NCBI GenBank assembly: GCA_910579785.1
Contig: CAJTVJ010000003.1
Location: forward strand, 3,702 to 67,701
Length of the DNA stretch: 64,000 bases
From: an uncultured Christensenella sp.
Lineage (GTDB): Bacteria; Bacillota; Clostridia; Christensenellales; UBA3700
Direction of reading: 5' to 3'
The translations under genes were made by a program, and so were the position numbers. Positions 20,420-49,013 of this stretch are shown piece by piece. Under the pieces are notes generated by a model. It was not told where the DNA came from and ran no database searches. It was given only the letters and a program-made list of their open reading frames with translations. Positions within the stretch are counted from its first letter, which is position 1. Each line of letters begins with the position of its first letter.

Positions 20420-20448
20420 TTCACATTTTTAGTTGCGTATGCTATAAT
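20420..20448 (+). promoter_or_regulatory. Promoter in leaderless geometry for the hydrolase gene
   Basis: TTCACA, 17-nt spacer, TGcTATAAT. The -10 ends 6 nt before the ATG at 20455 and there is no SD. Confidence 0.6.
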
Positions 20449-20454
20449 GATTGT

Positions 20455-21540
20455 ATGAAAAAGAATAATAAGTTTTTAGAGTTTTTAATTGTTTTGATAT
20501 ACGGCGTTTTTGCGATTACTATCGTATTGCCTATGATAGTTACAGCAATAATTTTTAAATTTGTATTCGGCAGAAGAGTGCGCAAGACATTGCATCATCT
20601 GACGCTTGAAGATTATCCCAATCTAGACGCGTATCCCGTCAATTTTAAAAGCGGGAAAAACCAGCTTGCGGCATACTTTATTGTCGATAAGTCTGTCACG
20701 CAATATAAGGCTGTCATGATAGTGGCTCACGGTATAGGATGTTCAAGGGCAGGATATCTCAACAGATACGATTACTTTGCAAGACAAGGATATATCGTGT
20801 TCGGTTTTGACTGTACGGGCACTTTTGAAAGTCAAGGTAAGGGCTTAAAAGGTCTTACGCAATCGCAAGTCGATATGGACAACGCTATCAAATATCTTGA
20901 CACTCTTTCGCAGCTCAAAGAGTATAAACTGCTTGCTTACGGTCACAGTTGGGGCGGTTACGGACTTGCGACGGAGCTTAATTGTCCTAATGCGCAAAAG
21001 CTTACTGCCGCGGCGACTCTGTCGGGCTTCAACGATATATGGGGAATATGTAAATATCAGATGACGAGATACGCAGGCAAAGCCGTCGTATTGGTAAAAC
21101 CATGGACGTATCTGCATTATTTTTTGCTGTACGGCAAGAAGGCTATGTACAAGGGGATAAAGGGTGTAAGCGCATTTAATAAGCCTGTGCTTGTCATGCA
21201 CAGCACGGACGACAAGACGGTGCCGTATGAGAGTTCGGTTGCGATACATAAAGATAAAAACACCAATCCGTATGCGCGCTTTGTCATATACGACGACAGA
21301 GGGCATACACTTTCCCGTCCGCCTGAGGTTGAGCAAAAGATAAGGGAGTTGCACAACGGCAAGAAGACTAATCTTAAACTTGGGGACAGCAATATTTTTG
21401 AATACAACGTCAATGTGGGATATGAATATTGCGATAGACTGACCGTCTTTGAAATCGACGAAAAGTTTATGGACGAAGTCAATTCTTTCTTTGAAGAAGT
21501 GCTTGACAAGGAAAAAGCAGCGACCTTGCAAAATGAATAG
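20455..21540 (+). CDS. Membrane-anchored alpha/beta-fold serine hydrolase
   Basis: N-terminal TM helix, GHSWGG nucleophile elbow, and downstream HSTDD and GHT (candidate Asp/His). Confidence 0.75.
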   Translation: MKKNNKFLEFLIVLIYGVFAITIVLPMIVTAIIFKFVFGRRVRKTLHHLTLEDYPNLDAYPVNFKSGKNQLAAYFIVDKSVTQYKAVMIVAHGIGCSRAGYLNRYDYFARQGYIVFGFDCTGTFESQGKGLKGLTQSQVDMDNAIKYLDTLSQLKEYKLLAYGHSWGGYGLATELNCPNAQKLTAAATLSGFNDIWGICKYQMTRYAGKAVVLVKPWTYLHYFLLYGKKAMYKGIKGVSAFNKPVLVMHSTDDKTVPYESSVAIHKDKNTNPYARFVIYDDRGHTLSRPPEVEQKIRELHNGKKTNLKLGDSNIFEYNVNVGYEYCDRLTVFEIDEKFMDEVNSFFEEVLDKEKAATLQNE

Positions 21541-23373: not shown

Positions 23374-23955
23374 TTAATTCAGCGGGAGTGCGCCTTTTCC
23401 CGTACCGGAATCGAATAAAGTCCCAATGACAGCAAGTGCAAATAAAAGTATAACGAATAACAATAAGAACGCATCCTTTATTTTGTCTTCTTTTGTTGGT
23501 TTTTTTCTGCGACTGTTTTTTTGCGTAGCATTTTTGTAGCTTATAAAGATATGGCTTGAAGCAAACAAAATTGAAAAAGCTATCAATGGCACGTATGCCA
23601 ATACTATTGCGCTGAATAAAAATATGCATGACGGAATTATCGAAAGCGATAATGCTTTTAATTTTCCGTTTTGTCTCCAACATATTATCCAAAAAATTAA
23701 ATATGCAAGACACAGACTGCCGTTGACGGACAGATATACGATAAGCGCGCTATCAAACCAAAAATTAAAATACGTATATGGGATATTGAATATCATCAGA
23801 ATAAAACAACCGTATCTCCCTATTTGTTCGGCAATGACGATTTTTTTGTTTGTATAGGTGGGCGCGACGTCATTTTTGTGCTTTATGGCGTATATTATAT
23901 TGGGTATCAATATTATTGCCATAATGGCAAGTCCGTAATAGTTAAACCAACTCAT
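23374..23955 (-). CDS. Integral membrane protein of unknown function (5-6 TM)
   Basis: Hydrophobic segments run throughout. I recognise no motif. Confidence 0.6.
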   Translation of the reverse strand: MSWFNYYGLAIMAIILIPNIIYAIKHKNDVAPTYTNKKIVIAEQIGRYGCFILMIFNIPYTYFNFWFDSALIVYLSVNGSLCLAYLIFWIICWRQNGKLKALSLSIIPSCIFLFSAIVLAYVPLIAFSILFASSHIFISYKNATQKNSRRKKPTKEDKIKDAFLLLFVILLFALAVIGTLFDSGTGKGALPLN

Positions 23956-23961
23956 AGAGAT

Positions 23962-23990
23962 ATTATATCAAAGACGTATTACTTTTTCAA
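23962..23990 (-). promoter_or_regulatory. Near-consensus promoter in leaderless geometry
   Basis: On the minus strand: TTGAAA, 17-nt spacer, TGaTATAAT. The -10 ends 6 nt before the ATG at 23955 and there is no SD. Confidence 0.65.
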
Positions 23991-46020: not shown

Positions 46021-46529
46021 GTTGCAGGGTGTCGTGACTTTCTCCCAGACTTGTAGGTATATATTTAGTCGCCTCGACCGAAGCGGAGAGGTATCATCCT
46101 TTTATTTTTTTAATTCGTTGAGATTTCTCCGCTGCACTTCGTTTCGGTCGAAATGACTATATTTTTTGCTATGCTACAAACCATATCCAGTCACCTCGAC
46201 CGCAGTGGAGAGGTCTAATCGAGTTAAATAAGTACCGACAAAATGTAGCGTAAGCATGCATTTTCGTTTGGTCGGTAAGGGCGGAACCCGACTGCTAGAT
46301 TTTTAATCTGATGAGATTTCTCCACGCGTTACACTTCGGTCGAAATGACTTTACTATATATTAGTACCATTGTTACCTAGGATATGTTGCATTGGGAGAA
46401 GGCTCAAAGTTCCATATCCCCTACAATCTGCAACACTACGTAAGCTATGTCATTTCGACCGTAGCGGAGAAATCTCATCCGCTTATTTTTATTTACTTGT
46501 TGAGACCTCTCCGCGTTGGTCAAAATGAC
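46021..46529. repeat. Mosaic hairpin-repeat cluster 3 (largest)
   Basis: Units at 46068-46092 (fwd), 46120-46157 (rev), 46190-46216 (fwd), 46313-46349 (rev), 46449-46476 (fwd) and 46502-46529 (rev, hybrid arms). Module B sits at 46227-46294. Linker-family copies sit at 46021-46060 and 46388-46408. Confidence 0.9.
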
Positions 46530-46551
46530 TTAAAATATATTTGAGTCTACC

Positions 46552-47280
46552 TCAAAATCCGCCGCCGTTGACGGAGATAACCGCTCCGTTGACGTAACTT
46601 GACTTATCGCTTATCAGCCACACTGCGGCATTCGCCACGTCTTGCGGAGTACCTATTCTGCCAAGCGGTATGCTGTCTGTAATATCTTTTACGTCTTCTT
46701 TTGACAGGTGTGCGTTGATATCTGTATCTATAAAGCCGGGCGATATGCAGTTGACTCTTATTCCGTTGGGAGCCAATTCTTTGGATAGAGCTTTTGTAAA
46801 GGAGATTATTCCGCCTTTTGCCGCGGAGTATACGCTTTCGCAGCTTCCGCCTACTTCGCCCCATATAGAGGATACTGTCACTATATTGCCGTATTTTTGC
46901 TGCAACATTACCTTAGCGGCTTCTCTGCACAGAGTGATACAGCCTACTAAATCTGTCATTATGACTTTTTGTATGTCGCTGTCGCTGTGGTCAATGAGTA
47001 GTCCGTATGCGCCTATACCTGCGTTGGCGACGACGGCGTCGACAGATTTGTACTTTTCTTTGACGTACGTCACCGCCGATTTGATTTCGCCGGCATTAGA
47101 GACGTCGAATTTGACTGCTTCGGCAATACCTCCGTTGTTTGCAATGCTTGCGCATACTTCTTTTGCCTTTTCTTGGTTGTTGCAATAGCCTACTATGACC
47201 GCATATCCCTCTTTTGCCAGAGATATTGCAGTAGCTTTGCCTATTCCTCTTGATGCTCCCGATATAATTGCCGTTTTCAT
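46552..47280 (-). CDS. Short-chain dehydrogenase/reductase (FabG-like)
   Basis: SGASRGIGKA, NAG and YSAAK motifs; 242 aa. Confidence 0.88.
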   Translation of the reverse strand: MKTAIISGASRGIGKATAISLAKEGYAVIVGYCNNQEKAKEVCASIANNGGIAEAVKFDVSNAGEIKSAVTYVKEKYKSVDAVVANAGIGAYGLLIDHSDSDIQKVIMTDLVGCITLCREAAKVMLQQKYGNIVTVSSIWGEVGGSCESVYSAAKGGIISFTKALSKELAPNGIRVNCISPGFIDTDINAHLSKEDVKDITDSIPLGRIGTPQDVANAAVWLISDKSSYVNGAVISVNGGGF

Positions 47281-47286
47281 ACAACT

Positions 47287-47315
47287 ATTATATCCAATCG
47301 GTTGGAGAAAATCAA
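47287..47315 (-). promoter_or_regulatory. Leaderless-geometry promoter of the SDR gene
   Basis: On the minus strand: TTGATT, 17-nt spacer, TATAAT. The -10 ends 6 nt before the ATG at 47280 and there is no SD. Confidence 0.6.
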
Positions 47316-47330
47316 CTTTTGCTGTATACT
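47302..47330 (+). promoter_or_regulatory. Leaderless-geometry promoter of the helicase gene
   Basis: TTGGAG, 17-nt spacer, TATACT. The -10 ends 6 nt before the ATG at 47337 and there is no SD. It interdigitates with the SDR promoter. Confidence 0.5.
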
Positions 47331-47336
47331 TAAAAT

Positions 47337-49013
47337 ATGGATAATAATTTTAAAGACAATACAACATGGGATTTGCCTGTCGAAGTACTAAAAGGTTTGG
47401 AAGAGCAAGGCGTAGTAGAACCCACCGACATACAAAGAGAAGTGATACCTATCGCTCTTGGGCATGGAGATATCGTAGCTCAGGCTCCCACCGGCACGGG
47501 TAAGACGCTGGCATTCGTCCTGCCCATGCTTGCAAAGATAGATAGGGATTCTTCAAAAGTTCAGGCGCTTGTACTTTGCCCGACGAGAGAACTTGTCATT
47601 CAGATATGCGAGGTAATACAAAATGCCTGCAAATATTACGAGCGCGTCAGAGTCGCTGGACTTTACGGCGGTCAGAATATTCAAAGACAATTATTTTGTC
47701 TTAGGAAAAAACCTCAGATAGTCGTCGGCACTCCCGGCAGACTTTTAGACCATATCGACAGGCGCACGTTGAAATTGAGCGACGTCAATTATTTTGTGCT
47801 TGACGAGTGCGACGAGATGCTTGATATGGGATTTAGAGGCGATATCGAAAAGATAGACGCCAATATATCCAAGTCCTGCCAACGGCTGTGCTTTTCGGCT
47901 ACGATACCCAAGGCAATAAAGGGACTTATAGAAAAACTGCTCAAAACCCCTGCATACGTCAAGACGAGTTTGGACGGAGAGGATACGCCTAAGATAAAAC
48001 AGTATTACAGTATTATCAAGGATTCCCAAAGGGTGGGCGCGCTGCTCAAAGTCATTGACGAAAATTCATATAAATTTGTCATAGCATTTTGTAATACCAA
48101 GACGAGAGCCGACAAACTTTTTGCCGCGCTTAAAGCAAAGGGAAGACGCGTCGCGATGTTGCACGGAGATTTGAGACAGAGCGAGCGTACGCAGATACTC
48201 AAAAGATTTAAGGCAAGGGAATTGGATATACTTGTCGCGACTGACGTGGCGTCGCGCGGCATAGATATAGACGGAGTGGAAGCAATATTCAACTTTGATC
48301 CGCCGACAGACGAAGACTTTTACGTTCACCGTATCGGTAGGACTGCAAGGGCAAGCAAGGACGGCACTGCTTATACCTTTATAGATTCCAATCAAGTGGG
48401 ATATATACCGAGTTATCAGCGCAAAGTCGGCAATGCTTTGGAGTTTATCGACTTAGGTGTTATCTCCGACAGCTTTACTCTGCCGAAAGACGGATCAAAC
48501 AAACTCAAAGACGTGCACGACAATCAAAGCAGGTTTTTCCTCAACGTGGGCAAGCGCGACTTGCTTGACAAGGACAGCTTGGTCAAACTGTTGATCAAAT
48601 TTACGCCTCTCAAAATCTATGATATTGCAGACGTAAAGATAAGAGACACATATTCTTTTGTGTCTGTCATAAAGGGAAAAGAGGGAGGAATATTCAAGCT
48701 CAAAGGCACCGTGCTCGGCAAGAGAGAAGTGACTGTGCAAGAGGCAAAGGAAGAAGAAAAACCAGCCTACAAAGATAAAAGCGCACCTAGCGGCGTTAAG
48801 CAAAAGGATAGGACATTTGATAAAAATGGCAAGAAGCCGAGACCTGCCGATAAAAATTCAAAAGCGCGCTCAGACAAGGCAGGCAAGGCAAAAAATGGCG
48901 GAGCGAAGAAGGATAAAAAATCTCAGCCCAAGTCGCGCAAAGGCAAACTCAGCGCAATGTTTGAAGACGAACTCAATAATTCTTATAAGATAAATAATAA
49001 TCGCAGAAAGTAA
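47337..49013 (+). CDS. DEAD-box (DECD) RNA helicase with a DbpA-like C-terminal domain and a K-rich tail
   Basis: PTDIQ (Q motif), AQAPTGTGKT, DECD, SAT and HRIGRTAR motifs. Confidence 0.92.
   Translation: MDNNFKDNTTWDLPVEVLKGLEEQGVVEPTDIQREVIPIALGHGDIVAQAPTGTGKTLAFVLPMLAKIDRDSSKVQALVLCPTRELVIQICEVIQNACKYYERVRVAGLYGGQNIQRQLFCLRKKPQIVVGTPGRLLDHIDRRTLKLSDVNYFVLDECDEMLDMGFRGDIEKIDANISKSCQRLCFSATIPKAIKGLIEKLLKTPAYVKTSLDGEDTPKIKQYYSIIKDSQRVGALLKVIDENSYKFVIAFCNTKTRADKLFAALKAKGRRVAMLHGDLRQSERTQILKRFKARELDILVATDVASRGIDIDGVEAIFNFDPPTDEDFYVHRIGRTARASKDGTAYTFIDSNQVGYIPSYQRKVGNALEFIDLGVISDSFTLPKDGSNKLKDVHDNQSRFFLNVGKRDLLDKDSLVKLLIKFTPLKIYDIADVKIRDTYSFVSVIKGKEGGIFKLKGTVLGKREVTVQEAKEEEKPAYKDKSAPSGVKQKDRTFDKNGKKPRPADKNSKARSDKAGKAKNGGAKKDKKSQPKSRKGKLSAMFEDELNNSYKINNNRRK

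Follow-up and report, generated by a model that had tools for sequence, protein, structure and literature searches.

Leaderless Genes and Divergent Promoters in Bacteria

Leaderless translation is usually regarded as a habit of Actinobacteria, Deinococcus, and archaea, and as marginal in Firmicutes. The subject of the present text is a gap of 56 base pairs (bp; 47281-47336) between two divergent genes of an uncultured Christensenella sp., a member of the Clostridia. One of the genes encodes a short-chain dehydrogenase/reductase (SDR) and the other a DEAD-box RNA helicase, and each has a promoter situated so close to its start codon that transcription would be expected to begin on the ATG itself. 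The gap lies in contig CAJTVJ010000003.1, of which a stretch of 64,000 nucleotides (nt), here called the window, was analyzed; coordinates are positions in this stretch unless another contig is named. Judged from its sequence, the gap holds a real and conserved pair of leaderless-type promoters.

In leaderless genes the Pribnow box is found 6-8 nt from the start codon, a pattern that GeneMarkS-2 places in its group C, with Actinobacteria and Deinococcus-Thermus (PMC6028130). Between 25 and 50% of the operons in group C genomes are predicted to be leaderless, and 3.4% of the Firmicutes have been assigned to this group (PMC6028130). The SDR and helicase genes resemble group C genes in that the -10 box lies 6-7 nt before the ATG, that there is no Shine-Dalgarno (SD) sequence, that the start codon is ATG, and that each gene is the first of its operon. 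They differ in that genes of this kind make up only about 2-3% of the total here, in a Firmicute dominated by SD-led genes. A similarly low share has been reported for other SD-using Clostridia. In solventogenic clostridia 2-3% of the transcripts are leaderless (PMC9045289), while 4% of those in C. phytofermentans have been described as "potentially leaderless," generally with a ribosome-binding site and a second upstream start (PMC5171806). Unlike the C. phytofermentans cases, the SDR and helicase genes have neither an SD sequence nor room for one, and their geometry is conserved across the family. The earlier note on this DNA had remarked that leaderless mRNAs are only sporadic in most studied Firmicutes, and the literature agrees (PMC6028130; PMC9045289).

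A divergent pair in which both mRNAs are leaderless is known from M. tuberculosis, where it consists of prpD (Rv1130) and Rv1129c (PMC3898074). The two loci are alike in having closely juxtaposed divergent promoters and transcripts that both start on the start codons, as predicted in the present case. However, the M. tuberculosis starts have been mapped experimentally and that pair is made up of a regulator and its target, while the present pair, in a Clostridia host, consists of an SDR and an RNA helicase between which no regulatory link is evident. The gene starts described below are of a known kind. They are notable for their compactness, for their conservation throughout the family, and for their place in an apparently lineage-specific set of leaderless genes.

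The Intergenic Region Between the SDR and Helicase Genes

The genes and promoter elements of the locus are as follows:

46552..47280, minus strand: gene for the FabG-like SDR, 242 amino acids, ATG at 47280-47278
47281..47286, minus strand: the six nucleotides AGTTGT that separate the SDR ATG from its -10 box; transcription is predicted to start on the A at 47280
47287..47292, minus strand: SDR -10 box TATAAT, from the sequence and the promoter scan
47310..47315, minus strand: SDR -35 box TTGATT, separated from the -10 box by a 17-nt spacer (47309-47293) and lying within the spacer of the helicase promoter
47302..47307, plus strand: helicase -35 box TTGGAG, separated from the -10 box by a 17-nt spacer (47308-47324) and lying within the spacer of the SDR promoter
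47325..47330, plus strand: helicase -10 box TATACT, from the sequence and the promoter scan
47331..47336, plus strand: the six nucleotides TAAAAT that separate the helicase ATG from its -10 box; transcription is predicted to start on the A at 47337
47337..49013, plus strand: gene for the DEAD-box RNA helicase, 558 amino acids, with a C-terminal DbpA RNA-binding domain and a lysine-rich tail

The earlier note had described both promoters, the 6-nt distances, and the two ATGs in this way, and its description is correct to the base. The usual start point of RNA polymerase is a purine that follows a pyrimidine, 7 nt downstream of the -10 box. The gap would then be a compact bidirectional cassette in which two promoters for the housekeeping sigma factor (SigA, sigma-70 type) stand back to back. 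With each -10 box ending 6 nt before the ATG, the 5' end of the transcript would fall on the A of the start codon or at most one base away from it. The SDR and helicase mRNAs would in that case have neither a 5' leader nor an SD sequence, and would be translated by ribosomes binding to the 5'-terminal AUG. We consider it probable that the paired promoters act in this manner, each starting on the A of its ATG and giving a leaderless mRNA translated from the 5' AUG. While the anatomy of the cassette is read directly from the DNA, as are its conservation and the genome-wide class of the same geometry presented below, the start sites and the use of the 5' AUG are inferred.

The SDR matches Pfam adh_short_C2 (8.4e-62), and the helicase matches DEAD (2.6e-50), Helicase_C (6e-30), and DbpA (4.3e-09). 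Public gene callers give identical products for the SDR (242 amino acids) and the helicase. Both start codons are forced. A TAA stop precedes the helicase ATG by two codons; in the SDR frame no further ATG, GTG, or TTG occurs upstream of the ATG as far as the stop at 47350-47352; and position 1 of the Pfam adh_short profile aligns with residue 2 of the SDR.

The earlier note had also claimed that neither gene has an SD sequence, and this holds. No word of at least 4 nt complementary to the anti-SD is present within 3-12 nt of either ATG, and the sole GGAG (47304-47307) is located too far away, 29 nt 5' of the helicase ATG, where it forms part of the -35 box. The first 40 nt of both mRNAs are predicted to be unstructured (0.0 and -0.8 kcal/mol). 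A search of the whole window (1-64000) at the Rfam gathering threshold gave no tRNA, riboswitch, or other known RNA, and there is thus no riboswitch or leader RNA that rivals the promoters as an explanation. Neither of the two promoters has the TG at -15/-14 of an extended -10 element (TGn); this element is present in many other members of the genome-wide class.

The promoters are interdigitated as the note had stated, each -35 box lying within the spacer of the opposite promoter. The -35 hexamers have 2 bp between them, and none of the -35 and -10 hexamers overlap, while the promoters as a whole have 14 bp in common (47302-47315). The predicted starts at 47280 (minus strand) and 47337 (plus strand) are 57 bp apart, and the transcripts diverge without overlapping.

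Back-to-back divergent promoters with a transcript that starts at the AUG are known from PRM/PR of phage lambda, where the cI mRNA is leaderless, and from tetR of Tn1721. Those arrangements are one-sided and part of an operator-controlled switch, unlike the present one, in which inspection gave no operator-like dyad. A regulator-binding dyad was considered for the shared -35 core TTGGAGAAAATCAA and rejected, as the symmetry of this core is limited to the outer TTG/CAA, which are the -35 triplets themselves. Symmetry-driven bidirectional promoters, reportedly described by Warman et al. in 2021, are said to share their -10 regions and to have starts about 18 bp apart. The SDR/helicase gap is like them in that divergent transcription would leave one short region. 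It was nevertheless rejected as a promoter of this type, since 32 bp separate its -10 boxes and 57 bp its predicted starts, and what the two promoters share is the -35 region rather than the -10.

Conservation in Related Genomes

The closest relatives of the host are metagenome-assembled genomes (MAGs) that carry the label Clostridia or "uncultured Christensenella sp." Within the host's family about 30 genomes have retained the divergent SDR/helicase pair, with helicase identities of 44-78%. Among 27 distinct intergenic sequences the gap is 56 bp long in 19 and 57 bp in four. Column conservation was computed on the 19 distinct 56-bp sequences. The SDR -10 box TATAAT is invariant in all 19, and so is the TTG of both -35 boxes. 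The helicase -10 box has an invariant TAT..T, the relatives displaying TATAAT, TATACT, TATGAT, TATTAT, or TATATT, while its -35 box is TTGGAA or TTGAAA in relatives. For the SDR -35 box the mean column conservation is 0.965. Conservation of the intergenic region is at the level of SDR second codon positions (0.83) and lies far above that of the third positions (0.55); 36% of the intergenic columns are invariant, compared with 1.7% of the third codon positions.

The bases between the -10 box and the ATG behave differently from the boxes. On the helicase side the T immediately before the ATG is invariant (19/19), while the five bases preceding it are nearly free (taaaat, tgaatt, tgagct, tatatt, ggaatt, atccgt, and others). 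For the stretch between this -10 box and the ATG the majority frequency is 0.60, near the 0.55 of the SDR third codon positions. On the SDR side 17 of the 19 sequences have a T at -1 and two have a C. The helicase distance is 6, sometimes 7, nt in the orthologues. It is kept even though the N-terminus of the protein differs in both length and sequence (MDNNFKDNTTW..., MENNNQNQLGGF..., MEFQSMG...), the ATG still being found 6-7 nt after the -10 box. A fixed distance combined with a free sequence is what a constraint set by the transcription start would predict.

A Genome-Wide Class of Genes with the Same Geometry

The host assembly is of the Christensenellales type and comprises 1.85 Mb in 86 contigs, with 43% G+C. 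Its 16S rRNA carries the canonical anti-SD CACCTCCTTT at the 3' end, and there is a strong SD peak at -11/-10 before the gene starts. Genes without an SD sequence are thus exceptional in this organism.

A set of 1211 non-overlapping open reading frames (ORFs) of at least 150 amino acids was assembled, of which 242 have no SD sequence at any candidate start. A TATAAT-like hexamer starting exactly at -12 is found in 22 of these 242 ORFs, compared to about three at other offsets. When a full promoter was defined as a -10 box with at least four of six matches including TA...T, together with a -35 box with at least four of six matches at a distance of 16-18 nt, 30 of the 1211 ORFs had one with its -10 box starting at -12, while neighboring offsets within -8 to -15 gave one to four. 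The peak at -12 is thus about 10-fold over background. All 30 ORFs in this class start with ATG, and an SD sequence was scored in just one of them, where it is a spurious word match. The base at -1 is T in 27 and C in three; in SD genes a pyrimidine is found at this position in 60%. This enrichment corresponds to the preference of transcription starts for a pyrimidine at -1 and a purine at +1, and is thus a feature of the transcription start rather than of translation.

The same picture emerges when the strict motif TTG-N20-TATAAT-Nk-ATG is counted. At k=6, 16 of 21 such ATGs are the start of an ORF of at least 100 amino acids, and at k=7 all six are, compared with none of 19 at k=4-5. The N4 spacing occurs 12 times, which is above N3, N5, N8, and N9, and none of these ATGs opens an ORF of more than 40 codons; the excess may be noise, or it may stem from a preference for certain bases near the transcription start, with an ATG overlapping +1.

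A crude gene call of ORFs of at least 80 amino acids gave 36 leaderless-type genes, all of which (36/36) are the first gene of an operon and none internal. The class includes dnaA, recF, uvrC, mnmA, tadA, a ttcA-like gene, ispE, NAD kinase, and a Xer-like recombinase. The start codons of these genes are confirmed by NCBIfam profiles, each of which begins within residues 1-8 of the protein. In total the leaderless-type genes of the host amount to about 30-40, or about 2-3% of its genes.

Two other leaderless-type promoters recovered by the genome-wide scan are located in the window. One is TTCACA-17-TATAAT-gattgt-ATG on the plus strand (20420-20457, ATG at 20455), and the other is TTGAAA-17-TATAAT-atctct-ATG on the minus strand (23953-23990, ATG at 23955). 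A second divergent pair in which both genes are of the leaderless type is found on genome contig C6, where recF (19046, minus strand) and dnaA (19168, plus strand) are 121 bp apart. The recF promoter is TTGAGA-17-TAAAAT-6-ATG and that of dnaA is TTGAAA-17-TATAAT-6-ATG; the identities of RecF and DnaA were confirmed by NCBIfam. The two pairs observed, SDR/helicase and recF/dnaA, compare to about 0.4 expected among 202 pairs, and two are too few for any conclusion about enrichment.

Distribution Among the Clostridia

The lineage survey counted TTG-N20-TATAAT-N6-ATG against a control with N9 spacing:

Host genome: N6 21, N9 2, ratio 10.5
37 genomes of the family, host included: N6 627, N9 110, ratio 5.7
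24 other families of the order, heterogeneous: N6 170, N9 63, ratio 2.7
78 Clostridia genomes of other orders: N6 369, N9 293, ratio 1.26

The leaderless class looks like a trait of the host's family and of parts of its order and not of Clostridia in general, since the N6/N9 ratio is 5.7 in the family and 1.26 in the other orders, these being raw counts of an exact pattern that depend on promoter strength and base composition. In the library searched, no paper connected Christensenellales with leaderless mRNAs. A more far-reaching proposal, to which we would give somewhat less than even credence, is that the locus belongs to a leaderless regulon specific to the lineage. This would consist of about 35-40 fixed housekeeping genes, among them dnaA, recF, uvrC, mnmA, tadA, ispE, NAD kinase, and the helicase/SDR pair, and would be largely absent from other orders of Clostridia.

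Evidence For and Against Leaderless Transcripts

A number of observations weigh against leaderless transcripts from the SDR/helicase gap. In a consensus promoter scan of a 3.5-kb region the SDR promoter scored 10/12, the top score of the region, but the helicase promoter matched at only 9/12, and then read as TGGAGA-16-TATACT. The same region has seven promoter-like matches compared to 6.2 expected in shuffled sequences, and because such matches are as frequent there as in shuffles, the hexamers alone prove nothing. What goes beyond chance is the exact position of the promoters relative to both ATGs. The genome-wide numbers rest on gene calling by a crude ORF heuristic of our own. Transcript-derived contigs ending at the two ATGs were sought, and only long DNA contigs were retrieved; when metagenomes were scanned with the 38 nt that directly follow the helicase ATG, one DNA contig of 1.2 kb was obtained.

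Two exceptions among the relatives belong with these points. In the L009/L043 lineage 43 nt have been inserted between the conserved helicase promoter and the ATG. The insertion, aatataggtcaacggctttaccgtcgattgacgcattggatttaactat, is found in the region 2878-2976 of L009, which is the same contig as L043 and represents one species of the genus; it is partly self-complementary and gives a leader without a clear SD sequence. In L057, which belongs to a genus further removed, the SDR gene is preceded by about 24 nt of leader that include a GGAG. Here (about 1393-1470) the GGAG is located 6 nt before the SDR ATG and 3' of the conserved TATAAT, while the helicase side keeps TATGAT-6-ATG. To judge by this arrangement, the L057 SDR gene looks like a natural switch from a leaderless to an SD-led start. 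Because of these exceptions the leaderless state is not obligatory for either gene.

The prediction of the earlier note that transcription starts on the A of each ATG, in leaderless geometry, nevertheless finds support in the genome-wide peak, in the conservation, in the pyrimidine(-1)/A(+1) context, and in the exclusive use of ATG, and we would retain it as the probable one.

Alternative Explanations

It was suggested in the earlier note that the two promoters compete, such that only one RNA polymerase at a time could occupy the cassette and the SDR and helicase genes would be expressed at each other's expense. The spacing makes this conceivable: with 2 bp between the -35 boxes each promoter lies in the upstream contact zone of the other, 57 bp separate the predicted starts, 14 bp belong to both promoters, and the rigid length of 56 bp is conserved. 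Divergent E. coli promoters with starts 64 bp apart have been described as partly overlapping, and competition between them has been discussed (PMC4469952). Competition is plausible at the present locus, as 57 bp is less than the distance already called partly overlapping in E. coli. However, the -35 and -10 hexamers themselves do not overlap, and back-to-back promoters may also stimulate each other through negative supercoiling, as for ilvY/ilvC (PMC4469952), so that mutual activation is an equally documented outcome. The fixed length of 56 bp is moreover fully explained by two 35-bp modules, each reaching from promoter to ATG, that share 14 bp. Any interplay of polymerases is inferred, and we regard mutual exclusion as possible but rather doubtful.

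It may also be that the promoters are genuine and that transcription begins a few bases to either side of the A. The mRNAs would then have leaders of 1-5 nt, or 5' ends inside the start codon, and the efficiency of translation would depend on which start is used. The choice of start site by RNA polymerase commonly varies by one nucleotide in either direction, and spacings of both 6 and 7 nt are found in the relatives and in the genome-wide class. Against this, the invariant T(-1)/A(+1) context favors the A as the start, and the genome-wide peak is concentrated at one offset. Such starts are improbable as the general state, and they are a variant of transcription from the ATG rather than a contradiction of it.

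Long leaders without an SD sequence would require promoters further upstream, inside the coding region of the neighboring gene, and the A/T-rich hexamers would then be unstructured AU-rich enhancers of translation and not -10 boxes. A weak candidate scoring 9/12, TCGACA-16-TATTGT (47383-47356, minus strand), is indeed present inside the helicase gene, upstream of the SDR ATG, and the helicase of L009/L043 evidently works with a leader of about 43 nt and no clear SD sequence. The candidate is the only one upstream, however, and it lies in the N-terminal codons of the helicase, which are not conserved in relatives. The hexamers retain the TA...T signature of -10 boxes and have conserved TTG triplets of -35 boxes exactly 17 nt away. 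The genome-wide peak consists of complete promoters at one exact offset, before the first genes of operons only, and the rule of a pyrimidine at -1 belongs to transcription starts and not to translation. Long leaders are for these reasons very improbable.

That the arrangement is a coincidence or results from mis-called start codons, for which the shuffle-like frequency of promoter matches in the 3.5-kb region could be cited, is effectively refuted by the conservation of the geometry across about 30 genomes and by the roughly 10-fold genome-wide offset peak, both starts being in addition forced by stop codons and domain boundaries.

A Repeat Next to the SDR Gene

On the other side of the SDR gene, the 614-bp gap between its stop codon and a gene for a major facilitator superfamily (MFS) transporter contains three imperfect hairpin repeats of about 100 nt (46054-46540), with the core AGTCGCCTCGACCGAAGCGGAGAGG ... 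CTCCGCTTCGTTTCGGTCGAAATGACT. In the near-identical strain L063 the SDR-MFS gap is 223 bp, and the copy number of the repeat thus varies. The repeat has no Rfam match and looks like a small element of the MITE (miniature inverted-repeat transposable element) or REP (repetitive extragenic palindromic) kind.

Implications

The finding does not change any principle. What the locus offers is a clean, doubly leaderless-type, and evolutionarily fixed example in an uncultured family of gut Clostridia. For the annotation of gut MAGs it is of practical importance that start finders relying on SD sequences can mis-call genes of this kind. For promoter models, about 30 exact alignments of promoter to start become available for an uncultured lineage.

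For the family itself, the survey suggests that a small and precise set of leaderless genes, including dnaA and recF, has been retained, and the set hints at the way in which housekeeping proteins of low abundance may be expressed in the lineage. If the lineage-specific regulon proposed above is real, it would imply that 5'-terminal AUGs are handled in an altered manner by the ribosomes or the initiation factors of these bacteria. The 56-bp double-leaderless cassette would then be the most compact form of this regulon, possibly coupling the expression of the SDR and the helicase through promoter interference.

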